64,000 bases of DNA. Origin: a virus. The stretch covers positions 1-64,000 of the IMG/VR virus record IMGVR_UViG_3300047552_001147, one strand, 5' to 3'. The translations under genes and the position numbers were made by a program. Below the pieces are notes generated by a model that saw only the letters and a list, made by a program, of their open reading frames with translations, was not told the DNA's origin and made no database searches. This document shows positions 13,560 through 47,085 of the stretch, in pieces (position 1 is the stretch's first letter; each line of letters starts with the position of its first letter).

Positions 13560-13955
13560 TTAAGAGCACAGGTCCTTGTATCGCGATCTGAGAGCTTCGC
13601 GATCATACAAGAGGCCGGACAGGTACTGCTTTTTTGGAGCTGCTCGATACATCTCCAACACAGTTACGTGATGTAGCACTGAGCCAGAGAGCGTCAGGTA
13701 ATCCTCACAAGACTTGAATAGTCTTGCATCAATCGGCTCCACCCTCCGCCCAACGATCTTTAGCAGCTTGACCTTGTCGCGAAGGCGCTCAATCACCTGC
13801 TGCTTTTCTGCTAGCTCGATGCGTATGTCGGCTAACTTGCTCAATATTCTGGCGCTCTGAATCTCTAGAACGAGATTGTAGAGTATTGCTCCACAGACGG
13901 CAGCAGCCCCTAGTAATATGGAAAGGATTACCAAGTTCTGTAGTTTATCTTCCAT
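13560..13955 (-). CDS. Membrane-anchored coiled-coil protein
   Basis: N-terminal hydrophobic helix; AAAGG RBS before ATG 13955. Confidence 0.7.
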   Translation of the reverse strand: MEDKLQNLVILSILLGAAAVCGAILYNLVLEIQSARILSKLADIRIELAEKQQVIERLRDKVKLLKIVGRRVEPIDARLFKSCEDYLTLSGSVLHHVTVLEMYRAAPKKQYLSGLLYDREALRSRYKDLCS

Positions 13956-13993
13956 GGCACACCTTTCTGATAAAAAAGAGGTTCCTCTATACG

Positions 13994-14002
13994 TCTTATG
14001 AC
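13994..14002 (-). promoter_or_regulatory. Conserved promoter motif GTCATAAGA
   Basis: AAAA lies 14 nt upstream; intergenic. Confidence 0.75.
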
Positions 14003-14023
14003 ACATAGACGGCCTCTTTTATT

Positions 14024-14392
14024 TCAGCTGTACTGTTTGAGTTCTCGTTCAGCCTCTTCGACCATCCCTCTTGTTTTAGCGAGGTCGGCGATGCCGCGAT
14101 CCTTCATGCGACGGCTGTACTCCACAAGCTCTTTGGCAGTATCAGATTGGTCATTACCAAACTTGCTTACCATTGCTTTGTGGAGCCCACCCGTCTCGTC
14201 GGCGATCGCTATGCTTCTGAGGTGAAGCTTCTCCACGACCAACAGATGATTGGTCCAGAAGACACGCATGCGCTCGCGGTGCTTCGCATTATCACTGCGA
14301 ACGATCTTGATGATTGAGACGATTGCCGTAACCAAGCAGAAAGCGATCACGACAATACCTACCACAGTGCAGGGTGCTCTTAGTATTTCCAT
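14024..14392 (-). CDS. Membrane-anchored hypothetical protein
   Basis: N-terminal TM helix; AAAGGAGG RBS. Confidence 0.75.
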   Translation of the reverse strand: MEILRAPCTVVGIVVIAFCLVTAIVSIIKIVRSDNAKHRERMRVFWTNHLLVVEKLHLRSIAIADETGGLHKAMVSKFGNDQSDTAKELVEYSRRMKDRGIADLAKTRGMVEEAERELKQYS

Positions 14393-14420
14393 GAGTCCTC
14401 CTTTTGTTGTGACTCATGTG

Positions 14421-14429
14421 TCTTATGAC
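14421..14429 (-). promoter_or_regulatory. Conserved promoter motif GTCATAAGA
   Basis: Abuts the upstream terminator; 29 nt before the ATG. Confidence 0.7.
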
Positions 14430-14430
14430 G

Positions 14431-14465
14431 TAAAAGAAGAGCCTGGTTGTCCAGGCTCTTCTTTA
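14431..14465 (-). terminator. Intrinsic terminator
   Basis: AAAGAAGAGCCTGG-ttgt-CCAGGCTCTTCTTT perfect inverted repeat. Confidence 0.85.
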
Positions 14466-14828
14466 CTCTGACACAATGGTCTCACACTCGATCTTCTTCC
14501 ATCCACGTGGAATCAGGACCTTTTCCGCGAACTCCGCGCACGCGTACATGTGTGTACCCGATGTAAGCTTGTCAAAGTGAACATACATCGGCGTGTCAGC
14601 TTTCTCTATCCAAGCATGCCAGGCCTTGCTGTCTTGAATGTCATAAGTTGGTTCTGGACCATAAATAGCTTCGACATGCTTTCTAGCCTCGTCTAGCATT
14701 TTAGACCGGAATTCCTTGTGGTTCTTCTCGAACTTCTCATATTCTTCTCGGATGTTGGCGTATCCGCCATCACCTTCACCATCCCAACCAAGAATAAAGC
14801 CCCACGTGGGGAAACTGATCAGTTTCAT
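14463..14828 (-). CDS. Hypothetical protein
   Basis: Coupled ORF. Confidence 0.7.
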   Translation of the reverse strand: MKLISFPTWGFILGWDGEGDGGYANIREEYEKFEKNHKEFRSKMLDEARKHVEAIYGPEPTYDIQDSKAWHAWIEKADTPMYVHFDKLTSGTHMYACAEFAEKVLIPRGWKKIECETIVSE

Positions 14829-15784
14829 TTGCAGGGTTCCCAGTTGAGTGCAACAGCGGCGTCTGCTCGGATGAAATGATCTTCCAGCTTCAAGGTTAGG
14901 CGGCAGTCGCGGGACGTTCTGTCGATGTGATCGAACCCTCTCCGCTTAGCCTCATCTATCGCCCACTGAAATGATCCATAAGGCCAAACAGTGGTGCCTT
15001 TGGCGAACTCTTCTAGTGTCACGAACTCGCCCTTAGCCAGCTGCTCTCTTGACTTCTCAACTCTCTCTTCTGAGAATACTGACCAGTCAATGGGCGACAC
15101 TTCATCAATCTTCTCGCTCTCAGGCTTTTGACCTGTCCATTCAGACTTCCAAAGAGCTTTCACGGTACGCTGGAGATCATCAAGCCAATCGAATTGGCGG
15201 CGCAGCTGCTCATCAATTTCCTGGAGCTGCTTTTCTCTGCGCTCACTGTCTACATCATGTCGGCTGACCTTATAGGTGAGACGTGTCGCAGCATCTCTAG
15301 ATGTTGACGCAACATCATTCAAACGCTTATCCAGCGAGGATACAGCATCATTAAGAGCACCAGCGGTTGCTTGGAGATGCACCTCTAGTGACTTCACACT
15401 ATCGGCCAGCTTCGCTACCTGCTCACGCAGATCCTCGGCCTTCTGCACTGTGCTAGGCTGGGCCATGCCTGCCTTAAGCTTCTCAGGAGACCATCCAGAA
15501 ACCTCATTGGCGGCCTTTTTGACAACCTCTTGGCGAGCTTTCTTCTCTACGTTCTCTTTGTAGTCAAATTGCTGCACTAGTGGCGCGTCGCCGGGCTTGA
15601 TGATGTGCCAACTGGACGTCATGTACTTGTCATATTGAGTAGCCAGTTGAGGATAATCTGAAAACGGCTCGTCGATGTACATGGTGCCGTTGCTCATGTA
15701 GTAGTGAGTTTTGCTGAGATCAGGATGGTCGCAACCACACAAGGCCCCAGCTTCCATTTCCTTTAGCGCTTCCCAGAATCGCAT
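14825..15784 (-). CDS. Coiled-coil protein; both ends weakly resemble DUF2829/Tad2-type domains
   Basis: MRFWEALKEMEAG...SSWHII and GSFQWAIDEAKRRG...LNWE flank heptad repeats. Confidence 0.45.
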   Translation of the reverse strand: MRFWEALKEMEAGALCGCDHPDLSKTHYYMSNGTMYIDEPFSDYPQLATQYDKYMTSSWHIIKPGDAPLVQQFDYKENVEKKARQEVVKKAANEVSGWSPEKLKAGMAQPSTVQKAEDLREQVAKLADSVKSLEVHLQATAGALNDAVSSLDKRLNDVASTSRDAATRLTYKVSRHDVDSERREKQLQEIDEQLRRQFDWLDDLQRTVKALWKSEWTGQKPESEKIDEVSPIDWSVFSEERVEKSREQLAKGEFVTLEEFAKGTTVWPYGSFQWAIDEAKRRGFDHIDRTSRDCRLTLKLEDHFIRADAAVALNWEPCK

Positions 15785-16068
15785 TCTCGGATCTCCTCTT
15801 CTGTCATTTGGATGAACTGGTCTCTGAAGCTCTCATCGGTATATGCGTCATAATTAACCTCACCATCTTGCTCTTCAAATTTGACGACCCAATCACCATC
15901 ATCTAGCCCTATGTGGTAGGTGTCGTCGCCTGGTGTGGGGTATAGCCTGTATAGGCCATCGCGATTCTTGCACGGGCTCTCGCCGCGACGGGTAAAAGGC
16001 AGGCGGTATCCTTCACCTAGAAACTGCTCTGCCTCGATAGTTGACTTGAATTTGTACCGTACTCTCAT
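15763..16068 (-). CDS. Small phage protein (AEQFLG...GDW family), paralog 1
   Basis: EAEQFLG..LPF...GDWVV...F; coupled start at 16068. Confidence 0.65.
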   Translation of the reverse strand: MRVRYKFKSTIEAEQFLGEGYRLPFTRRGESPCKNRDGLYRLYPTPGDDTYHIGLDDGDWVVKFEEQDGEVNYDAYTDESFRDQFIQMTEEEIRECDSGKR

Positions 16069-16358
16069 GCGTTGATCCACTTGCAGGTTGAGGGTTCAAA
16101 TTTGATGAAATTGCGCTCAACCTCAATAAATGTCCCCTTGAAGAGCTTCATCGGCACTACCATGTATCCGGCATCTGGGTTCTCAAGAATCCAATCACCA
16201 ATACTGATTGGAATACGCTTGGATGTGTATGGAAAGCCCATACTCCACTCACTATCAATAACGGCTAAGTGACCCCTGCAGCCACCGAAAGGCAGTGGAT
16301 GATCTGGACCTAAAAACTGTTCAGCGTTCAAAATCTCAGGTGTTCTAATTACTTTCAT
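16065..16358 (-). CDS. Small phage protein (AEQFLG...GDW family), paralog 2
   Basis: NAEQFLG..LPF...GDWIL...F; AAGGAAG RBS. Confidence 0.65.
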   Translation of the reverse strand: MKVIRTPEILNAEQFLGPDHPLPFGGCRGHLAVIDSEWSMGFPYTSKRIPISIGDWILENPDAGYMVVPMKLFKGTFIEVERNFIKFEPSTCKWINA

Positions 16359-16379
16359 GTCTTCCTTCTGTTGGTTAGT

Positions 16380-16401
16380 AAAAGGAAGGCTTGCGCCTTC
16401 C
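16380..16401 (-). terminator. Terminator of candidate RNA B
   Basis: 7-bp stem, GCAA loop, TTTT. Confidence 0.75.
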
Positions 16402-16753
16402 GAGGATCTGGACCCTTGCGGGCGTTTCGCTTACACCAGTTGTGCGAGCTTAGTACCTATCCCGGTACCAAGTGCCTATTGTTGGGAGGCTCCCCACCGT
16501 ACTTCGTAGCCATCCTCATGGCCTCTGGCTTGAGTCCGCCAGGTTGCTATTTTCCGTGACTTTCCTTCGCGGCGGAGGTAGCCGTAGACTTCAACCAACA
16601 CGCCCGTAGACTCAATCGGGAACGTGCGAGTATCCATCATTTCGCAGAACGCTGCATACCCACAAGGCTGCGGCCCCTTGTGGCAGTCAACTCTCGCTGC
16701 CAAGACTGGTACTATTGGTTTCGCAGTCAAGCCAGGCATTCATCCTCTGGCTC
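16380..16753 (-). ncRNA. Candidate structured RNA B (about 375 nt)
   Basis: Starts 6 nt after a promoter motif; many hairpins including GCAA loops; ends in GGAAGGC-gcaa-GCCTTCC-TTTT; no credible CDS. Confidence 0.65.
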
Positions 16754-16758
16754 ATATA

Positions 16759-16767
16759 TCTTATGCC
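16759..16767 (-). promoter_or_regulatory. Conserved promoter motif GGCATAAGA
   Basis: AAAAA lies 13 nt upstream. Confidence 0.75.
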
Positions 16768-16800
16768 CTAAAATAGCCCATTTTTGACCACTTTGGAGGT

Positions 16801-16845
16801 AAAAAACAGGCCGCTCCCCCGAAGTAAGGGGAGTGGTGGCCTGTT
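16801..16845 (-). terminator. Terminator of candidate RNA A
   Basis: AACAGGCC..CTCCCC-ttacttcg-GGGGAG.GGCCTGTT-TTTT. Confidence 0.75.
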
Positions 16846-17313
16846 CCAAAGATGACCATAACAACCCAATGGCCTTTCCACTGACCATCAGGTTGCAAGG
16901 GTTACTACTTGGCGTTTACAGGTTCGGAGGGCATAGCAGGAGCTTTTTCCAACCACAGGTTGGGTTGCGCTACCGCGAGTGCTGTAACCTGGTCAACGTA
17001 GGCATCGATACCGGCTTTTAGACCGGTGGCTGCCGCCTTCGCAAACGCCAAACCCTCTAGGTAAGACCGTAAGTCATTATCCTTCAAGAGTCACTCCAAA
17101 AGAGTTAAGCAGTCTCTTTGTTCAGTTTTACATCCCGCTCTCGCAACGGAAGTTGCTTGGAGAGAAAGCTAGGATGGCGACTCTACTTCATTTGACGGAT
17201 CGCGCCGTAGGAGACTATGCGTTGCTTTTTGAGGCAATCACAGTACCCTTCTTATAGCTGTCGCGAGTCACTAGCTGCAGCTACGTGAGCAGAGAAAGGA
17301 GATTACTCTGCTC
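16801..17313 (-). ncRNA. Candidate structured RNA A (about 515 nt)
   Basis: Starts 6 nt after a promoter motif; nested long-range helices with G-U pairs valid only on the - strand; terminal hairpin plus T6. Confidence 0.65.
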
Positions 17314-17318
17314 ATTGA

Positions 17319-17327
17319 TCTTATGAC
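17319..17327 (-). promoter_or_regulatory. Conserved promoter motif GTCATAAGA
   Basis: A6 lies 13 nt upstream. Confidence 0.75.
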
Positions 17328-17360
17328 TTGTTTTCATCACTTTTTTGAGGCCAGCTGCCC

Positions 17361-18386
17361 ATGTTTAAACTAGCCGGTGCCGTGGTCGATTGCTATGACG
17401 ACCCCTCCTTTGTGTCATCAATCGCCGCCCAATCACTATTCGGTCATGAGCTTCTTGACCCCTCCCAGTTAGATAAGCTGGCTGACAAAGATTTCGCTGT
17501 CAAGATTGTTGATGGGAACGTAGTGGCAAGAAAGTACCCCATTTACAATGCAGCCATTACTAAGATTTCTTGCGCTTATCTATACGACATGGCTGATAAA
17601 CTTCCTCAGGAAGTCGTCAAAACCGCCGCCGCAAGACTAGCCGCTGCCTGTGAGAAATTTGACATCGGGATTCCTTCAGAATTTGAGCCTATTGCAAGAA
17701 CTGGACAATACACAGTAGTGGTAAAACAAGAAGAAACCCCAGCAGCTATCAGAGAAGAAGACGAGCTAGGAAAGTTCGCTGCCTGGGAAGCTGCCAAACA
17801 GTTCCCCCGAATGACTCCTGAAGATAAAGTGGTGCTAGCAGATGAGCTGCATAAGATCGGCGCCGCTCAGCACAGACCAGAAGTGATGGAATACGTTCCC
17901 ACTGACACATACGGATCACTTCTGAAACAAGCGATTAACGACCGCAAGTACATCCTACGAGGCGATGAATCTGATAATTCAATCATGATCGCTGCCCTAG
18001 ATGATATGTACAGCAGACGTGATCAAAAGTCGCCGCTAGAGTTCGCTGTAGAGCTAGCCAATTTTGATAAGATCGCTGGACTTCGCCCCAGATACAAGAA
18101 CGGACTAACAGATCCGTACAAGGCTAGTTTCGGTGGCAAGAAAGAAAAGTCCAGTGGACCAGTAGAACACGGGCATGCAAAGAACGATGTGTCTAACCAA
18201 GCGCCTGTACCCGTCGATGTGGAAGTCGGATCAAATCTGGCTAAAGAGGGCGCCGAGAAAATGACAGTCGCTGAACATCTTGAAGCGATTGCTAAACACT
18301 ATGGCCATGTTAAGTCCGCTGCCAAAGCTGATGAGACATACGGCAAGTCTTTCATGACCGCATGGAACCTTTACTTCAGGAAGTAG
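17361..18386 (+). CDS. Probable head-associated protein with many KxA sites; DUF6582-like segment
   Basis: LADKDFAV...RKYPI motif; KLA, KTA, KFA, KIA, KSA sites; ADELHKIG. Confidence 0.55.
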   Translation: MFKLAGAVVDCYDDPSFVSSIAAQSLFGHELLDPSQLDKLADKDFAVKIVDGNVVARKYPIYNAAITKISCAYLYDMADKLPQEVVKTAAARLAAACEKFDIGIPSEFEPIARTGQYTVVVKQEETPAAIREEDELGKFAAWEAAKQFPRMTPEDKVVLADELHKIGAAQHRPEVMEYVPTDTYGSLLKQAINDRKYILRGDESDNSIMIAALDDMYSRRDQKSPLEFAVELANFDKIAGLRPRYKNGLTDPYKASFGGKKEKSSGPVEHGHAKNDVSNQAPVPVDVEVGSNLAKEGAEKMTVAEHLEAIAKHYGHVKSAAKADETYGKSFMTAWNLYFRK

Positions 18387-22939: not shown

Positions 22940-23176
22940 ATGAGCTTTCAGAACGCCTTTTTTGATGAATTGACGAAGATCGCCGGCGATGACAAGTACA
23001 TCAAGCGGAAGCCTATGCAAGGCCCATCAGGGTTCACGCCCGGCTCAGTACTGGAACAAGAGCGTTCATTCAGAAGAATGAGCCGCCCAGTATCCTCAGG
23101 AAGAGCTGTTGGCAGTCTGAGCCAGCCGACTAGCGCTAGTGCGCGTAGGCCAGCTCCTAAATTGGTGCCTAGATAA
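22940..23176 (+). CDS. DELEK-tag basic protein
   Basis: MSFQNAFFDELTKIA; GGAG RBS. Confidence 0.8.
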   Translation: MSFQNAFFDELTKIAGDDKYIKRKPMQGPSGFTPGSVLEQERSFRRMSRPVSSGRAVGSLSQPTSASARRPAPKLVPR

Positions 23177-32717: not shown

Positions 32718-34682
32718 ATGGTACTGACCTCAGAGATGAATCGTCGAACCTCTGGTTCGATGAAGTCATTAAACACCTACCCGAGTCAATTCTTTGACAT
32801 CAGCTCGCAGTACATGCCGCCGAGCGTCAAGGAAATGTTCCGGTGGTGTCTTTATCTGTACATGACGCACTCCGAGATCGCTCCGGTGATCAACAAGAAG
32901 TGCGCGTATGTCATTACTGACCTGATTTATGAGTCCGGCGATCCTGAGAAGGACAAGCCGAGTGATAAGGTTGTAGATACTTGGCGAGAGCTGCTGGAAC
33001 GTATCCTCAAGATCAGTGAAGAAGAGTACAAGCTTCTCCTGGACTTTGAAGTCTACGGCAACGCCTTCTGCTCATTCTTCTTCCCATTCGAGCGTTACCT
33101 CAAGTGCCCGTCTTGTCAGAACGAGCATCTAGGCCGCGACGTTAAGTGGAAGTATGAGGCCCATGAGTTCCGTGGCGTGTGCGCAGACTGCAACGCGCAG
33201 ACAGCCTTCATTCCGCGTGATAAGATTGTCAAGAACCGCCGCCGCATTCGGCTGATTCGCTGGTTCCCTCAGTACATTGACATTCAACATAACCCATTCA
33301 CGGGCCAGGCTACGTACATCTACCGCATCCCAACATGGCTCAAGAAGCGTGTAGCGGATGTCACTCAGAATAAAGCACTGGTAGAAGAAACGCCGCTGAC
33401 GTTCCTCACTGCTATCAAGCAGAAGAAGAACATTCAGTTCGATCCAGACAACTTCTATCACATGAAGAACCCCTCTGTATCTACAGAGGACGATTCGTTT
33501 GGTATTCCCCCGCTGCTATGCGTGTTCAAAGACGCTTGGCTGTTCCAGACATATCGTAGAGCGCAGGAGGCGATCGCAATTGATCACATCCTCCCGATGA
33601 CTCTACTAATCCCCACACCACCGTCTGGTAACGTCAGCCCCCACATGAGCACTAACCTTGCTGAGTGGGCGAGCCGCATGCAGGTTATGATCAGTAAGTG
33701 GCGCCGCGACCCGAACGCCATCTTCACTGTTCCATTCGCAGCCACAGTTGAGAACATTCGTGGCGATGCTAAGGCTCTCGGTGTGCAAGCTGAGATGGAG
33801 CAGATTCGACAGCAGATTTGTGGTGGTCTAGACGTGCCGCAGGAGTTCATCTACGGTGGACTTAACTGGAGCGGAAGCTCTATCTCGCTGCGCGTACTTG
33901 AGAACCTATTCCTCGCCCGCATTTCTCAGCTCGATAACTTCTTGCGCGACTTCGTTGTCCCGTCGATGCAGCGCTTCTGCAGCCTACCGAAGATCGTTGT
34001 TCGCCACACCGACTTCAAGATGGCTGATGACGTGCAGCAGAAACAGCTGGCGATGAACCTGCGTCAAACGAACACGATCTCTGATCGTACTACTATTGAA
34101 GAACTCGGCTTCGACTACGAGCGCGAAATGAAGCGCCGTAAGGACGAAGAAGATGGTCGCGTTAACCAAATGAAGAAGCAGGCCCAGGCTCAAGCAGAGT
34201 CTCAAGGCCAGCAGATGATTATTCAGGCTAAGTACCAGGCTTTGGCCCAGATTGCTGGACAGAAGGCGGCGCAGGAAGCTGCGATGGCCGCTGCCAACAA
34301 TAACCCAATGACTGAACAGATGCCACCCAATATGACAATGCCGGGACAAGGAGCTGAACAAGGTGGTAAGCCAGGTGGCGCAAAGCCGGCTGGTGGAAGC
34401 GCTCCCGCTAAGCAAAGTGGGTCCGGTAGTAGCGGATCAAAAGGCGCACCGCAATCACAACCTCAGGAGATCTCTCCTGTGATGATGGACTCGGTCGTCA
34501 ATAATTTCTTGAAGGGTATCCCTGACGATCAGAAAGAGTCTGAGTTGATGGCCATGCGCAAGACTAACCCCTCGCTCGCGGTTCAGATTCAGAAGCGTAT
34601 GAAGCTTATCGATAAGCAGTCGAAGGATACTAAGCCATTACCCGAACAAAAACCGCCCAGAAGAAAGAACAGCCCAGTATGA
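32718..34682 (+). CDS. Probable portal protein with zinc-ribbon insertion
   Basis: DFEVYGNAF, FGIPPL, ICGGLDVPQEF, ISDRTTIEELG; CPSC/CADC insert; Q/P/G-rich C-terminal tail. Confidence 0.7.
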   Translation: MVLTSEMNRRTSGSMKSLNTYPSQFFDISSQYMPPSVKEMFRWCLYLYMTHSEIAPVINKKCAYVITDLIYESGDPEKDKPSDKVVDTWRELLERILKISEEEYKLLLDFEVYGNAFCSFFFPFERYLKCPSCQNEHLGRDVKWKYEAHEFRGVCADCNAQTAFIPRDKIVKNRRRIRLIRWFPQYIDIQHNPFTGQATYIYRIPTWLKKRVADVTQNKALVEETPLTFLTAIKQKKNIQFDPDNFYHMKNPSVSTEDDSFGIPPLLCVFKDAWLFQTYRRAQEAIAIDHILPMTLLIPTPPSGNVSPHMSTNLAEWASRMQVMISKWRRDPNAIFTVPFAATVENIRGDAKALGVQAEMEQIRQQICGGLDVPQEFIYGGLNWSGSSISLRVLENLFLARISQLDNFLRDFVVPSMQRFCSLPKIVVRHTDFKMADDVQQKQLAMNLRQTNTISDRTTIEELGFDYEREMKRRKDEEDGRVNQMKKQAQAQAESQGQQMIIQAKYQALAQIAGQKAAQEAAMAAANNNPMTEQMPPNMTMPGQGAEQGGKPGGAKPAGGSAPAKQSGSGSSGSKGAPQSQPQEISPVMMDSVVNNFLKGIPDDQKESELMAMRKTNPSLAVQIQKRMKLIDKQSKDTKPLPEQKPPRRKNSPV

Positions 34683-40995: not shown

Positions 40996-43900
40996 ATGCT
41001 AGATCATCAAAAATCCTTCGAGTCTGCGATTGTTCTTGCCGAGAAGATCGTCAAAGAAGCCTTCCCGATTGTCGGCAAACACCACACGGTTCAGGCCAGC
41101 AACTTCCGCTGGCAGGGTGTTGGGTCATCTGTATCATACGACATTGCCGCCCAAAAGAAAGCCAAGCTAGAAGACAAGTCGCTTCTCGCTACCCTCCTGG
41201 CCGATGTCCAGGTAGTTGACAAGACCGGCAAAGTGCTGGATCAGCGAGACGGCCACATCGTCCTCCAGATCCCACACATCACCTCTAGAGCTTCGTACAT
41301 CCTGCAAGGGACGGAGCGCCAGGTCATCAACCAGCTTAGATTGCGCCCAGGTATTTACGCCGACTTCACGCCGGACAACAACATCAAGGTGCGCATCAAC
41401 ACGTCAGCCGCAGGCACCTACGCTGTCCTTCTGGACAGAGAGAGCCTGATAATGACGTTTAGGGTTGGCACCTCGACCAACTTCCCAATCATCTCAGTTT
41501 TGAAGGTATTGGGCCTGAACGAGGTTGAGATCCGCCAGCTGCTGGGAGACAAGATCTTCGCGGTAAACCAGAAGAAGTCTAAGCCTGATATGGATGCGCT
41601 GAAGCTGATCAAGAAGCTCCGCCCATACCACGCCACAGCCAACGTAGACGACGCTAAGAAGATGGTCGTTGACTTCCTGGCATCAAAGCCGCTGGACCCG
41701 GAAGTTAACAAGGTAACGATTGGCAAGCCGATTGATAAGGTGGACCAGTCAGCAGTTGTTGAGTGTGTGCGCAAGGCAATTTCTCTTGCCACTGGTGCCT
41801 CTGAGCCGGATGACGTCGAATCGTTAGCGTTCAAGTCGATCCTATCATTTGACGACTTCGTGGCCGAGAGACTGCTAAAGGCCATCCCCGATATCAAGCG
41901 TAAGGTTGCGTCACTGGTTGATAGAAAGCCGCAGGTGCTGTTTGCCTTGCCGCCGTCAATGTTCACAGACACTATTGACAACTTCTTCAACAAGTCTGAG
42001 TTCACGCGACACGCTGACCAGAACAACCCGATTGACATTGCCGCCGTCAACTCCCTTGTCACTACGATGGGTGAGGGCGGTATCAAGAGCACGTACGCGG
42101 TGACTGACGAGGTCCGCACGATTCACCCGTCGCACTTAGGTATCCTCGACGTGGCGCACACCTCAGAAGGTGGCAACATCGGTATTACCAACCACCTGTC
42201 GCTGGGAGCGAAGAAGATTGGCAGTGCTTTGGGCATGTCTGTCTATGACGCCCGCACAGGTAAAAGAGAAGACCACACAATCCAGGCGCTCGTTAACAAG
42301 ACCATCGCATACCCGGACCAGTATGATAACCTTGGCAAGGGGATCCCGAAGCCCAGGGGTAAGGAGATCAAGGTAAGGGCTGGCAGCTCTTTCAAGGTCG
42401 TGTCTCCTAAAGAGGTAGACTACGTTTTTACGACGCCCGACTCCTTCTTCTCGTCAACAACCTCCGCTATCCCCTTCCTGCCGAACAACCACGTTAACCG
42501 CGTGTTGATGGGTGATAAGCACATTGAGCAGGCAGTTAATCTGACGAACCCCGATAAGCCGTTGGTCATGCACGAGATGACCAGTGGCCCGGATGCCCCT
42601 AAGAAGATCTCGGCGGGCTACGAAGAGCTGTTCGGTCAGATGTTCAACATCAAGTCACCGGTCAAGGGCAAGGTCACGAAGGTGACTGCCGACGCTATCT
42701 ACATCAAGCCTACAACAGGCAAGGCGGTTCCGGTAGCTATCCACAATAACTACCCGCTGAACTCGCACACGTTCTTCCACGACACGCCCAGCGTTAAGGT
42801 CGGCGATCGCGTCAAAGAGGGTCAACCGCTGGCTGAGAGTAACTTCACCAAGGACAATGTCCTGGCTCTCGGTAAGAACCTGAGAGTAGCGTATACCGCA
42901 TACAAGGGGTATAACTTCGAGGACGGTGTTGTTATCTCCGAAGCGGCTGCTCAAAAGCTCACATCTACCCACAAGCACGAGTACCGTGTTGACGTAGATA
43001 AGAACACTAAGACTGGCGCAGACATCTTCTTTGCCGCCTTCCCGCAAGACCTTAAGTACCTGCGCGAGCTGAAAGAGCGCTACGACTCTGACGGTATCAT
43101 CAAGAAGGGCATCAAGGTAGAGCCCGGCGATATCCTTATCCCGGCGTTCCAACAGATCCCGCTGCACGCGGAGTTCGACTACAAGAGACTCGGTAAGAAG
43201 CTCGGTGATAGAGCTATCGACATCTCTCAGCGGTGGGACGGCCTAGGTCCCGCTGAAGTTATTGACGTTGTCAAGTCCAGATCGTTCATCAAGGTCTTCC
43301 TAAAGTCGGAAGAGCCTATGAAGATCGGCGACAAGATCAGTATGCGTCACGGCGGTAAGGGTATCATTACCCACATCGTCCCAGACGATCAGATGTACAA
43401 GGACGAGTCGGGCAACATCGTTGACGTGCTTTTGAACCCTCTCGGTGTGCCTAGCCGTGTCAACACTGGCCAGCTGTTTGAGACAGCGGCAGGTAAGCTA
43501 GCACAGAAGACCGGTAAGCCGTACTATACGAAGAACTTCAACGAGACGCACGGCAATACCCTAGGGAAGCTGAAGAGCGACCTCGCTGCTGCCGGTGTTA
43601 AGGATGCTGAGACCCTAACTGATCCTGTGACTGGTCGCAAGCTGCCCGAGACCCTCGTAGGCATCACGCATATCTACAAGCTTAAGCATCAGGTTGACAC
43701 GAAGTTCAAGGCTCGTGGCGCAACTGATGAGAGCTTCACTCTTGATGAGCAGCCGGCAAAAACTGACGAATCGTCCGCACAACGTATCGGTATGCTCGAC
43801 ACGTTCTCGCTGCTCTCCGGCGATGCAACGCACTTCCTGAACGACGCCTACGGTATCAAGTCACAGAAGAACGACGAGTATTGGGTTGCCCTGCAACGCG

Positions 43901-46900
43901 GGGTCATGCCTCCGCCTCCAAAGGTACCGTTCATTACAGAACGCTTCGTGACGATGTTGCTTGGTGCGGGAATCAACCTTCGCCAGGAAGGTAGCAAGCT
44001 AACCGCTGCCCCGCTCACCGACAGTCAGATCAAGAACATGTCGCACGGTGAGATCGATAAGCCGCTAGTGGTTAAGTCTACCAACCTGATGCCTGAGAAG
44101 GGCGGGCTCTTTGACCCCGTCAAGACTGGCGGTATCGGCGGTAACCGGTTCAATCACATTGAACTTGTGACACCTATCCCTAACCCGTTGATGCTGGACG
44201 CGATCACGTCCGTCGCACGTCTTCCAAAGACTGATATCCTTACACAGATCATTGATGGTAACCTCGCTGTCAATGATCAAGGTGAGGTTGTTAAGGACTT
44301 GAACGACGGAGCCAGCTTCGGTAACGGCGTGATCAATCTACTCAAGAACATTGACGTTGAGAAGGAGATCACACGCACACAGGCGGAGATCAAGACGTCT
44401 AAGGCGGATAAGCTCAACGCAGCATATCGCCGACTCAAGTATCTGCGTGCTTTGAAAGAGCTTAAGCTAAAGCCGGTAGATGCCTACACAAACAAGTTCG
44501 TTCCGATCATTCCGGCGAAGTTCAGAAATGTTCAGCCAAGAACTGACGGGTCGCTAAACGTGGCTGATGCAAACTTCGGCTATCGCGAAGTGATCATGAT
44601 CAACAACCAGCTGAAGAAGCTGTCGACTGCCGGAATCTCGCAAGATAACCTCAAGACGCTGAACCGTGACCTGTTCCGGGCCGTGTCTGGTATTACTGGT
44701 GTGACTGCCCCTCTAACGAGAGCGGCGGACGTTTCCGGCTTCATTGAGAAAATCAAAGGACCTAGCCCGAAGATGGGCTTCTTCCAGTCTAGAGTACTAA
44801 CCAGAGCGCAAGATCTGTCAGCGCGTTCTACAGTTATCCCTAACCCCAAGCTTGGGCTGGACGAGATCGGTCTACCGTCTGAGATGGCGCTAACGATCTA
44901 CAAGCCCTTTGTTGTGAAGCGTCTAGTTGGTCTTGGATATGATCCGCTACGCGCCAGAGATATGGTTGAGAAGCGAGACGAGCTCGCAATCCGCGCGCTG
45001 CAGTCGGAGATCGAAGATCGTCCGGCGATCATGAACAGAGCGCCGTCTCTGCATAAGTTCAACCTACAAGCATTTAAGCCGCGTCTAATTGAAGGTAGAG
45101 CGGTAGAAGTCAACCCGCTGATCGTTGCGGGATACAACATGGACTTCGACGGCGATACAGCTGGTATCCACGTCCCCGTGTCTGAGGATGCGCGCAAAGA
45201 GGCCTGGGATAAGTTGATGCCTAGCCGCAACCTGTTTGCTACTAGAGAGGACTCGGTTATTCACGCCCCCTCAAGAGAAACGGTTCACGGCCTGTATCTG
45301 ATGACAACGCCCAAGGGCACGCCCGTACCTGTGAAGTCGGTCAAAGAACTGATGGACATGTACAAGGACGGGAAGATCGAGGTAAACGCAGCGGTCACTG
45401 TTGGCGGTCAAGTGCAATGTGCTGGGCAGTACTTAGTTGATGCGCTAATACCGGATCAAATCAAGCTCGGCCCTGTACAGATCACATCGAAGAACCTCAA
45501 GGATCTTCTGATCAGTGTTGCTAAGACACAAGAGTCTAACAAGGCTGGCGAGATCATCTCCAAACTGAAAGACCTTGGTAACCACTACGTCACGCACGTC
45601 GGCTTCTCGATTTCACTCAACGACCTGGAGATTGATAGAGGTCTACGCGACGACATCATGACCAAGGCTAAGCAGCGCATCAAGGAAGTCGGCTTCAATA
45701 CCGCTGCCAACGAGGCGTCTAAAGGTGTCAAGGATCTGGTCAGTAAGACCAAAGACAACCGGTTCGTAGAGGTTTCGGTAACATCCGGCGCCCTAGGAAA
45801 GCTCGACTCTCTCGCACAGATGGTCGGGTCGCCAGTCGCTGTTGAGGACCACAAAGGCCGCGTCGTTCCCATGCTGATCGAGAAGTCGTATGCAGAAGGA
45901 CACGACCTAGGATCGTATTTGGCAACAGCCCCCGGTGCTCGTAAAGGCCTGGTAGATAAGGGCTTATCGGTAGGTGAGACAGGTTACTTCAACAAGAAGC
46001 TTGTGAACACCACGATCGAGTATAAGATTGTCTCGCCTGATTGTAAGACAACGATCGGCATCGATATGCCGCTTTCATCGAGTGATATCTACGATAGGTT
46101 TGTGGCCGCCGGTCCTTACCGCAATAAGCAGTTGACTCCCGAGTTCGTAAGACAGCTAACAGCGAAGGGGAAGACGAAGATTCTTGTTCGTTCCCCAATG
46201 ACATGTGCCGCAATCGGTGGCCTGTGTCAGAAGTGCTTCGGCCTCGACTCCAGCGGAAAGCTTCCGCCGATTGGATCACATATCGGAGCTCTCGCTGGCC
46301 AGACGCTAGGAGAACGTGCAACGCAAACAACGCTGAAAGCCTTCCACACCGGCGGTACTATCGGCGGACCTAAGCTAGGATTTGATCGCATCTCCGAGAT
46401 CGTGGAGATGCCTGAAACGATTAAGAACAAAGCCACGCTGGCATCTGTTTCTGGAGCAGTCAGTAAAATAGAAGAAACGCCAACAGGCGGTTGGTTCGTT
46501 TATGTGAAGGACACCAAGCACTTCGTTCCGAAAGAACTCGGATTAGGGGTTAAGCTGCGACAAGTAGTTAAGGCTGGCGATAAGCTTAGCCAAGGAGGCA
46601 CAATCAAGCCTCAAGAGCTACTTGAATACACAGGCAGCATTAACACTGTCCGCAATTATCTAGTGAACGAGCTGGCGCAAAGCTACAGCAAAGAGCAAGG
46701 TGCTTACATCAAACGAAAGCTACTAGAAACTGTTGTTCGTCCATTAACTGACAAGGCCCAGGTAACAGATGCTGGCGGGGCACTCAACAAGTTCAACGTG
46801 TATCCTGGAGATGTTCTCTCTGTCAACCTGATTAAGGACTACAATAAGCAGCTGAGAGTTTCCAAGCAACCAGAGATCAAGTTCGAGCCGATGCTGCTTG

Positions 46901-47085
46901 GAATCAATAACGCACCTTATCACAGCCAGGACTTCATTGGTCCGCTATCTCACGAGCGGTTGAAGCAGACGATCGTGCGGGCACCGCAGTTCGGCATGTC
47001 AACCGACATCGAGAAGGGTCACCCGATGGCCCAGCTGGCCCTGAAGAACCTAAGAGACATCGAAAGTACCAGAGCTAGAACGTGA
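40996..47085 (+). CDS. rpoBC: DNA-directed RNA polymerase, fused beta-beta' single polypeptide
   Basis: Beta motifs GYNFEDG, GDKISMRHGGKG, LNPLGVPSR, YKLKHQVDTKFKAR, followed by beta' motifs GGLFD, NRAPSLH, catalytic NMDFDGD, GARKGLVD, RSPMTC..CQKCFG, GERATQTTLKAFHTGG. Confidence 0.95.
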   Translation: MLDHQKSFESAIVLAEKIVKEAFPIVGKHHTVQASNFRWQGVGSSVSYDIAAQKKAKLEDKSLLATLLADVQVVDKTGKVLDQRDGHIVLQIPHITSRASYILQGTERQVINQLRLRPGIYADFTPDNNIKVRINTSAAGTYAVLLDRESLIMTFRVGTSTNFPIISVLKVLGLNEVEIRQLLGDKIFAVNQKKSKPDMDALKLIKKLRPYHATANVDDAKKMVVDFLASKPLDPEVNKVTIGKPIDKVDQSAVVECVRKAISLATGASEPDDVESLAFKSILSFDDFVAERLLKAIPDIKRKVASLVDRKPQVLFALPPSMFTDTIDNFFNKSEFTRHADQNNPIDIAAVNSLVTTMGEGGIKSTYAVTDEVRTIHPSHLGILDVAHTSEGGNIGITNHLSLGAKKIGSALGMSVYDARTGKREDHTIQALVNKTIAYPDQYDNLGKGIPKPRGKEIKVRAGSSFKVVSPKEVDYVFTTPDSFFSSTTSAIPFLPNNHVNRVLMGDKHIEQAVNLTNPDKPLVMHEMTSGPDAPKKISAGYEELFGQMFNIKSPVKGKVTKVTADAIYIKPTTGKAVPVAIHNNYPLNSHTFFHDTPSVKVGDRVKEGQPLAESNFTKDNVLALGKNLRVAYTAYKGYNFEDGVVISEAAAQKLTSTHKHEYRVDVDKNTKTGADIFFAAFPQDLKYLRELKERYDSDGIIKKGIKVEPGDILIPAFQQIPLHAEFDYKRLGKKLGDRAIDISQRWDGLGPAEVIDVVKSRSFIKVFLKSEEPMKIGDKISMRHGGKGIITHIVPDDQMYKDESGNIVDVLLNPLGVPSRVNTGQLFETAAGKLAQKTGKPYYTKNFNETHGNTLGKLKSDLAAAGVKDAETLTDPVTGRKLPETLVGITHIYKLKHQVDTKFKARGATDESFTLDEQPAKTDESSAQRIGMLDTFSLLSGDATHFLNDAYGIKSQKNDEYWVALQRGVMPPPPKVPFITERFVTMLLGAGINLRQEGSKLTAAPLTDSQIKNMSHGEIDKPLVVKSTNLMPEKGGLFDPVKTGGIGGNRFNHIELVTPIPNPLMLDAITSVARLPKTDILTQIIDGNLAVNDQGEVVKDLNDGASFGNGVINLLKNIDVEKEITRTQAEIKTSKADKLNAAYRRLKYLRALKELKLKPVDAYTNKFVPIIPAKFRNVQPRTDGSLNVADANFGYREVIMINNQLKKLSTAGISQDNLKTLNRDLFRAVSGITGVTAPLTRAADVSGFIEKIKGPSPKMGFFQSRVLTRAQDLSARSTVIPNPKLGLDEIGLPSEMALTIYKPFVVKRLVGLGYDPLRARDMVEKRDELAIRALQSEIEDRPAIMNRAPSLHKFNLQAFKPRLIEGRAVEVNPLIVAGYNMDFDGDTAGIHVPVSEDARKEAWDKLMPSRNLFATREDSVIHAPSRETVHGLYLMTTPKGTPVPVKSVKELMDMYKDGKIEVNAAVTVGGQVQCAGQYLVDALIPDQIKLGPVQITSKNLKDLLISVAKTQESNKAGEIISKLKDLGNHYVTHVGFSISLNDLEIDRGLRDDIMTKAKQRIKEVGFNTAANEASKGVKDLVSKTKDNRFVEVSVTSGALGKLDSLAQMVGSPVAVEDHKGRVVPMLIEKSYAEGHDLGSYLATAPGARKGLVDKGLSVGETGYFNKKLVNTTIEYKIVSPDCKTTIGIDMPLSSSDIYDRFVAAGPYRNKQLTPEFVRQLTAKGKTKILVRSPMTCAAIGGLCQKCFGLDSSGKLPPIGSHIGALAGQTLGERATQTTLKAFHTGGTIGGPKLGFDRISEIVEMPETIKNKATLASVSGAVSKIEETPTGGWFVYVKDTKHFVPKELGLGVKLRQVVKAGDKLSQGGTIKPQELLEYTGSINTVRNYLVNELAQSYSKEQGAYIKRKLLETVVRPLTDKAQVTDAGGALNKFNVYPGDVLSVNLIKDYNKQLRVSKQPEIKFEPMLLGINNAPYHSQDFIGPLSHERLKQTIVRAPQFGMSTDIEKGHPMAQLALKNLRDIESTRART

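Follow-up and report, generated by a model that had tools for sequence, protein, structure and literature searches.

The DNA analysed here (64 kb; the window) is the first part of a 94.5-kb IMG/VR virus contig whose completeness was estimated at about half. Its minus strand carries a promoter-to-terminator unit of about 390 bases, referred to below as unit B, in which the predicted RNA measures 376 nt. Unit B is preceded by a second unit, unit A (16801-17327), and followed by four genes ending at 14463. An earlier note on this DNA had described the two units as tandem structured RNAs. The features on which the analysis turned are listed below, from upstream to downstream, with their positions in the window.

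16905-17087, minus strand: 60-aa ORF (ORF60) with a TTG start, in unit A (codon score 0.37, period-3 power 2.8)
16781-16787, minus strand: A-tract TCAAAAA, a -35-region element common to several promoter copies (context alignment of the copies in G000, G002 and G005)
16758-16767, minus strand: promoter core GGCATAAGAT (11 minus-strand copies in the contig, kept in relatives)
16745-16753, minus strand: GAGCCAGAG, predicted transcript start region and part of the extended consensus NNWTGAG (from the sequence)
16744-16747, minus strand: GAGG, Shine-Dalgarno-like, 4 nt before an ATG (from the sequence)
16729-16753, minus strand: 5'-terminal hairpin with GAGG and ATG in its stem and loop, competing with the closing helix (pair probability 0.30-0.35)
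16742-16747 with 16402-16407, minus strand: helix GAGGAT/ATCCTC closing the 5' and 3' ends (pair probability 0.59-0.65)
16476-16739, minus strand: 87-codon ORF (P0001; ORF87), a candidate gene with mixed evidence
16604-16612 and 16582-16590, minus strand: two copies of AGTCTACGG, 22 nt apart and in different codon phases (from the sequence)
16450-16471, 16429-16449 and 16412-16423, minus strand: three short hairpins of the 3' tail, the last GCAA-capped (3' tail fold z -2.8 to -3.1)
16380-16401, minus strand: intrinsic terminator GGAAGGC-GCAA-GCCTTCC followed by TTTT, then AC (pair probability 1.0; -12.1 kcal/mol)
14463-16358, minus strand: four genes (97, 105, 319 and 121 aa) without a copy of the promoter motif (ORFs, motif scan)
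14436-14461, minus strand: strong terminator that would close the putative operon, just ahead of the next promoter (11-bp stem, -19.6 kcal/mol)

Source phage and promoter class

A freshwater metagenome was the only origin among the sequencing runs that contain the contig, namely two DNA runs of one sample. No RNA sequencing run was listed as containing the sequence of unit B, and the contigs of two DNA runs from the probable source sample contain no variant in the interior of the unit. Among the proteins encoded on the contig are a GpA-type large terminase, an Mtd-like tail protein, NAMPT, and a 2029-aa protein whose single chain unites the RNA-polymerase domains beta and beta'. This fused polymerase is 46-69% identical across related contigs. 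Among the relatives, G001 is complete at 193 kb with terminal repeats present, while the closest cultured phages are Vibrio phages of ~187 kb (28% identity). Unit B belongs to an uncultured phage from freshwater whose genome, at about 190 kb, encodes its own fused beta-beta' RNA polymerase. As a separate observation, matches to the polymerase gene (window 40996-47085) extend over 7.1-8.8 kb in the relatives L002, L003, L005 and L009 as against 6.1 kb here, and a homing endonuclease is annotated beneath the polymerase match in Vibrio phages D181 and D148; the polymerase gene of some relatives may contain insertions, either inteins or introns.

The promoter motif ahead of unit B is real and recurs beyond chance. 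Its 10-nt core, G[GT]CATAAGAY, has 11 minus-strand copies across the whole contig, nine of which are followed by a Shine-Dalgarno sequence and a start codon 16-55 nt past the motif, and the 16-nt pattern CATAAGATNNATGAGC matches four times in the window against 0.43 expected. The core, the trailing NNWTGAG and an upstream CAAAA/TAAATA element are also found in the relatives G002 and G005. The copy at unit B is an intergenic 10-nt core on the strand of the downstream unit with an NNWTGAG-like start region, and it belongs to this clade-specific early promoter class. For comparison, the minus strand holds no sigma-70 promoter (TTGACA, 16-18 nt, TATAAT, at least 9 of 12 matches) within 14000-18000. 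As the earlier note had pointed out, GAGCCAGAG follows the promoter core at a spacing that unit A mirrors: it starts 4 nt past CATAAGAT, and GAGCAGAG in unit A is equally spaced. ATGAG stands downstream of the motif at 17325, 16765 and 14427, and also in G002. Because the core and NNWTGAG recur in G002 and G005, the likeness of A and B at their starts reflects a promoter and start consensus and not a common RNA feature.

In G002, the nearest relative, every promoter-gene-terminator array that shares these terminator/promoter junctions carries protein genes. The junction itself, conserved in G002 and G005, consists of a terminator with a CAAAA element and the next GKCATAAGAY no more than ~30 nt downstream. 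Minus-strand terminators of the clade (16380-16401, 14436-14461 and 16800-16845 in the window, and others in L011 and G005) end in a stereotyped TTTTAC or TTTTAG, and the AC after the T run of the unit B terminator matches these other terminators. In some units a hairpin with a T run comes straight after the promoter motif (14002-13960 and 35409-35372, minus strand), and promoter-proximal terminator-like hairpins were also noted in G002 (42253) and G005 (42315). One further locus (L011, G002:59632-61290) holds two tandem paralogous cassettes, each with a GGCATAAGAT promoter and a gene; the C-terminal part of these genes consists of short, GC-rich repeated codons, and the locus forms a duplicated early cassette array at a contig end.

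Folding of unit B, RNA searches and unit A

The earlier note had described unit B as packed with stems. Every stem that it listed is present in the sequence, but the global stability of the unit is no better than that of shuffled sequences. Against dinucleotide shuffles, the minimum free energy of unit B corresponds to z = -1.26, with 10 of 100 shuffles folding equally well, and the opposite (plus) strand reaches z = -1.59. The fold z is -0.5 without the terminator and +0.12 for the part covered by the ORF. With the pair span limited to 45 nt, z falls to between -2.2 and -2.7, a signal traced to the 5' hairpin and the 99-nt 3' tail. The partition function assigns a probability of 1.0 to the terminator, 0.98 to GCCAT/ATGGC, ~0.6-0.7 to three other listed stems and the closing helix, and 0.08-0.35 to the rest of the listed stems; in the ensemble, five listed stems and the closing helix lie above about 0.6 and no others do. 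The ends can close as the earlier note had proposed, by pairing of GAGGAT (16747-16742) with ATCCTC (16407-16402). A fold more stable than shuffles on the transcribed strand, as would mark a structured ncRNA, was not found globally and is significant only for the locally folded ends. The excess structure is confined to these ends, mainly to the ~100-nt 3' tail.

The repeat AGTCTACGG, which had also been remarked upon, occurs twice in unit B (16612-16604 and 16590-16582); by our own estimate, a 9-mer occurring twice in 376 nt is about a 1-in-4 event. A third exact copy lies at 33050-33058 on the plus strand, inside the gene for a 654-aa protein, for a window total of 3 against 0.34 expected, and a near copy, AGTCTCCTACGG, is found in unit A at 17204-17215 (minus strand). 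The recurrence of AGTCTACGG in the window may be due to chance.

The searches for an RNA family or a homolog of unit B were uniformly negative. At gathering thresholds the window matched none of the 4227 Rfam models; with the cutoff relaxed to E 10, the covariance-model scan of 16200-17500, a check suggested by the earlier note, returned only two chance snoRNA-like matches, both in unit A and none in unit B. A tRNA/tmRNA scan found none, and a DNA search with unit B gave no match in GenBank phages. An nhmmer search with units A and B came back empty for the five related genomes (G001-G005), for the remainder of the contig and for 36 loci surrounding homologs of the adjacent 341-aa gene. Scanning IMG/VR with promoter words retrieved the known relative and two unrelated chance matches, with no unit B homolog among them; neighbour proteins led to no relative above 41% identity, and g97-based scans of genome and viral contigs, which used the first gene past the terminator, found no relative. 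With regard to a riboswitch or attenuator, no aptamer family was found in Rfam, and the terminator forms in essentially all structures of the ensemble. Complementarity of unit B to phage transcripts is at chance level, the longest words being 12-14 nt. An independent structured ncRNA, as had been suggested, is not supported by these results, with no Rfam family, no fold excess in the body of the unit and no homolog in the five related genomes or 36 loci.

That unit B is a non-coding RNA of some kind, its frame open by chance, is possible though rather doubtful. It would then act either in cis, as a leader that tunes termination at 16401-16380 through its folding or a bound factor, or in trans, as an abundant early RNA. 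The restricted-span fold signal and the well-defined series of 3' hairpins are consistent with such a role, and the closing helix abuts a terminator that itself lies 22 nt ahead of a promoterless gene, the same arrangement as in the G002 unit beside the 341-aa gene. These local features have to be set against a global stability equal to that of shuffles, an opposite strand that is equally stable, a lack of Rfam matches even at E 10, complementarity to phage transcripts at chance level, and the fact that no homolog was found and hence no covariation.

The idea of a tandem RNA pair is further weakened because unit A carries a conserved 60-aa protein gene. Homologs of ORF60 were found on other contigs at 98% and 88% identity. 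Its positional counterpart in G002 (L048:3671-3811) encodes 46 aa and is 39% identical in a MAFFT alignment, a similarity to which pairwise BLASTP gives no significance (E 1.7). The 5' leader of unit A is ~230 nt long and very stable (z -4.7). Unit A appears to be an mRNA whose 5' leader is long and stable, and not a free-standing RNA. The suggestion that unit B acts with RNA A did not hold up in the duplex calculation, where the best A-B duplex scored z = +1.7 against shuffled B and 294 of 300 shuffles were as good. A bipartite regulatory RNA or ribonucleoprotein, formed by A and B through RNA-RNA pairing, would fit the tandem order of the units, their common promoter type and the 5' hairpins in both; given the chance-level duplex, the lack of A-B similarity by nhmmer and the protein gene in unit A, we consider it very improbable.

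The 87-codon frame as gene or chance ORF

Layout provides the main argument for a gene. In unit B, GAGG, 4 nt and an ATG open the frame 18 nt past the motif, compared with 16, 17, 27 and 29 nt in other cassettes, and the 4-nt Shine-Dalgarno spacing is identical in the cassettes at 14427 and 22873. The 87 open codons are followed by a ~95-nt hairpin-rich tail and then by the terminator. The ORF at 16476-16739 has an open frame, a start codon and a ribosome-binding site at working distance. Also in favour of a gene, the stretch covered by the ORF folds no better than shuffles, and the surplus of structure lies in the 3' tail. An ORF of at least 87 codons arises in 3.5% of dinucleotide shuffles of unit B, and one of such length with its ATG no more than 40 nt from the 5' end in 0.9%; the latter figure, together with the Shine-Dalgarno sequence at the usual spacing of the phage, weighs against a frame that is open by chance in a non-coding RNA. 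On the other side, GAGG and ATG fall inside the possible 5' hairpin, which counts against translation.

The composition of the frame points the other way and is among the observations that would favour a non-coding unit. Its codon-usage log-odds is 0.03, compared with 0.35 (SD 0.14) for in-frame windows of long genes and -0.07 for spurious ORFs; such a score falls at about the 1st-2nd percentile of true coding windows and is reached by 33% of spurious ORFs. The 3-periodic Markov score (-0.07) agrees with the codon score. Period-3 spectral power, a measure that needs no training set, is 0.605, about the shuffle median; among real 261-nt coding windows just 0.3% fall to this level, and none of the contig's 27 well-supported small genes has a value of 1.09 or less. 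Exceptions do exist, since the probably real small gene at 22940-23176 is equally aperiodic. In both codon usage and periodicity, the 87-codon ORF does not resemble the genes of this genome.

Database searches gave the predicted protein no relatives, a result that counts against a gene and in favour of a non-coding unit. Among 1.84 billion cluster representatives there was no relative of the 87-aa sequence apart from one artefact match. This sole phmmer match, P0003, was rejected: it covers 22 residues and recurs six times along a tandem-repeat protein. No relatives were found in IMG/VR, GenBank phages, PDB sequences or family libraries, and the exact sequence is absent from a collection of 15 billion proteins. 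Language-model features of ORF87 gave low recognition and no usable match (recognition 1931); the neighbouring orphan g97 reached 0.92 to viral clusters. Folded by AlphaFold2 as a single sequence, ORF87 was modelled as a beta-sheet protein with pLDDT 64 and pTM 0.50, whereas one control of similar length, a spurious ORF on the antisense strand, reached pLDDT 62 and pTM 0.11 and showed no secondary structure; as a contrast with one control, this is weak evidence for a gene. Foldseek with the predicted structure retrieved nothing below E 0.6 from the PDB.

Taken at face value, a chance ORF of this kind is a ~1-3% event and a real gene without coding signal a ~0.3-3% event, and the two improbabilities roughly cancel. 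The balance tips toward a gene because the other promoter copies drive protein genes, with a Shine-Dalgarno sequence and start codon after 9 of the 11. The earlier note had named this ORF as the alternative to its RNA; its position is exactly that of the gene in other cassettes, but its coding statistics are poor. Unit B is a genuine early transcription unit; nothing here shows it to be a structured RNA, and its layout is that of a gene cassette.

Terminator, downstream genes and comparison with known systems

The GCAA-capped terminator that the earlier note had placed at the end of unit B was found at 16401-16380 and has the properties of an intrinsic terminator, with a 7-bp stem, 5 G-C pairs, a GCAA loop and TTTT. 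It is modest (-12 kcal/mol, four U) in comparison with its minus-strand neighbours at 14461-14436 and 35400-35372 (~-20 kcal/mol). The ATG of g97, the first downstream gene, lies 22 nt past its T run. The interval 16358-14429 gave no match in the motif scan, and the genes at 14463-16358 do lack a promoter motif of their own, as had been stated. A terminator directly precedes a promoterless gene in the G002 unit beside the 341-aa gene, too. The earlier proposal of leader-terminator control stands as far as the terminator ahead of motif-less genes (16358-14463) is concerned; read-through is a reasonable supposition. In the simplest reading, g97 to g121 would be expressed by read-through from the promoter of B, perhaps also that of A, with the terminators setting the level.

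The first of these downstream genes, g97, is a real gene. A homolog with 78% identity (P0005) is encoded on an ENA contig, and the three variants of g97 in the source sample (16248, 16278 and 16302) all fall at third codon positions. The 2,930-nt ENA contig encodes close homologs of both genes flanking unit B, g97 (78%) and ORF60 (98%, P0006 cluster), and because both are on it, this contig should span the position of unit B. A 14,052-nt Logan contig (P0007) is likewise among the contigs with close homologs of ORF60 and g97. Separately, g97 (16065-16358) and g105 (15763-16080), both on the minus strand, have a common N-terminal AEQFLG...LPF segment; judged by this sequence similarity, they look like paralogs.

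We favour, with about even confidence, the reading that unit B is a short mRNA for an orphan 87-aa protein and at the same time forms the promoter-proximal segment of an early operon. Transcription would start a few bases past GGCATAAGAT and end, at least in part, at the modest terminator at 16401-16380; GAGG, 4 nt and ATG would open the orphan ORF for translation. Polymerases that pass the weak terminator would enter the four promoterless genes at 16358-14463. Unit B would then be the first cistron or leader of the operon, and its terminator would set the output of the distal genes.

The genomic setting of the unit also bears on whether its insert is under selection at all. The minus-strand block 13560-17330 is a variable insert in comparison with G001-G004; its flanks are conserved plus-strand genes encoding 1814 and 341 aa, both of them structural genes. 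The gap between these two genes is ~600 bp in G001, where the block is absent, and 12 kb with other content in G002. Because the block is a variable insert by synteny, nhmmer finds no homolog of unit B. This absence in G001 and replacement in G002, the lack of a counterpart of unit B in any relative examined, a GC content of 55% as against 49% in the downstream genes and 52% in the contig, and the mixed signals of an open frame without coding statistics are what would be seen if unit B were a decaying or recently acquired moron-like cassette, with promoter and terminator intact and an insert not selected as protein or RNA. An 87-codon frame is unlikely to stay open for long without selection, though, and promoter, Shine-Dalgarno spacing and terminator are all intact; this explanation appears unlikely.

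If unit B is a small orphan early gene with a leaky terminator, as we prefer, it represents ordinary phage genome architecture, and its main use would lie in helping to work out the early promoter/terminator grammar in an unstudied clade of freshwater phages (~190 kb) with a fused RNA polymerase. Were it non-coding, it would open a way to study RNA-based early transcription control in the clade. Tentatively, it could in that case be a new lineage-restricted early ncRNA of ~375 nt, with a promoter read by the fused polymerase of the phage, serving as a leader that gates g97-g121 or as an abundant early RNA that targets the host. In either case the tandem structured RNAs are not an RNA pair: a small, conserved gene for a protein lies in A, and the layout of B is that of a gene cassette.

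Several known systems offer comparisons. Phage morons, a concept from lambdoid phage genomics, are autonomous promoter-gene-terminator cassettes inserted between conserved phage genes. Like them, unit B combines a promoter of its own with a single short ORF and a factor-independent terminator, and lies in a block that varies among relatives, is flanked by conserved structural genes and departs slightly from its surroundings in base composition. Unlike in morons, its promoter is a motif of the phage clade and not a sigma-70 consensus, the phage encodes its own RNA polymerase, and the ORF is only putative. Terminator-gated early operons are represented by lambda pL/pR, with tL1/tR1 and N/nut, and by the HK022 put RNA. 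Unit B resembles these in the position of its terminator between a promoter and distal early genes; it differs in having no identified nut- or put-like element and no Rfam match, and read-through and an antitermination factor can here only be presumed. GOLLD and ROOL, large phage-associated structured RNAs in Rfam, are comparable insofar as unit B likewise runs from promoter to terminator over several hundred bases of a phage and lacks an accepted gene. In contrast to them, unit B has no match to 4227 Rfam models at E 10, is not unusually stable and has no relatives among the sequences searched.

The promoter class finds its closest parallel in the early promoters of phiKZ and AR9, phages with multisubunit RNA polymerases (PMC7598289, PMC5312081). 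The fusion of beta and beta' in one 2029-aa chain and the sequence of the motif set the present phage apart, while in both cases the phage encodes beta/beta' homologs and many of its small early units have at their head a short, stereotyped motif specific to the phage.
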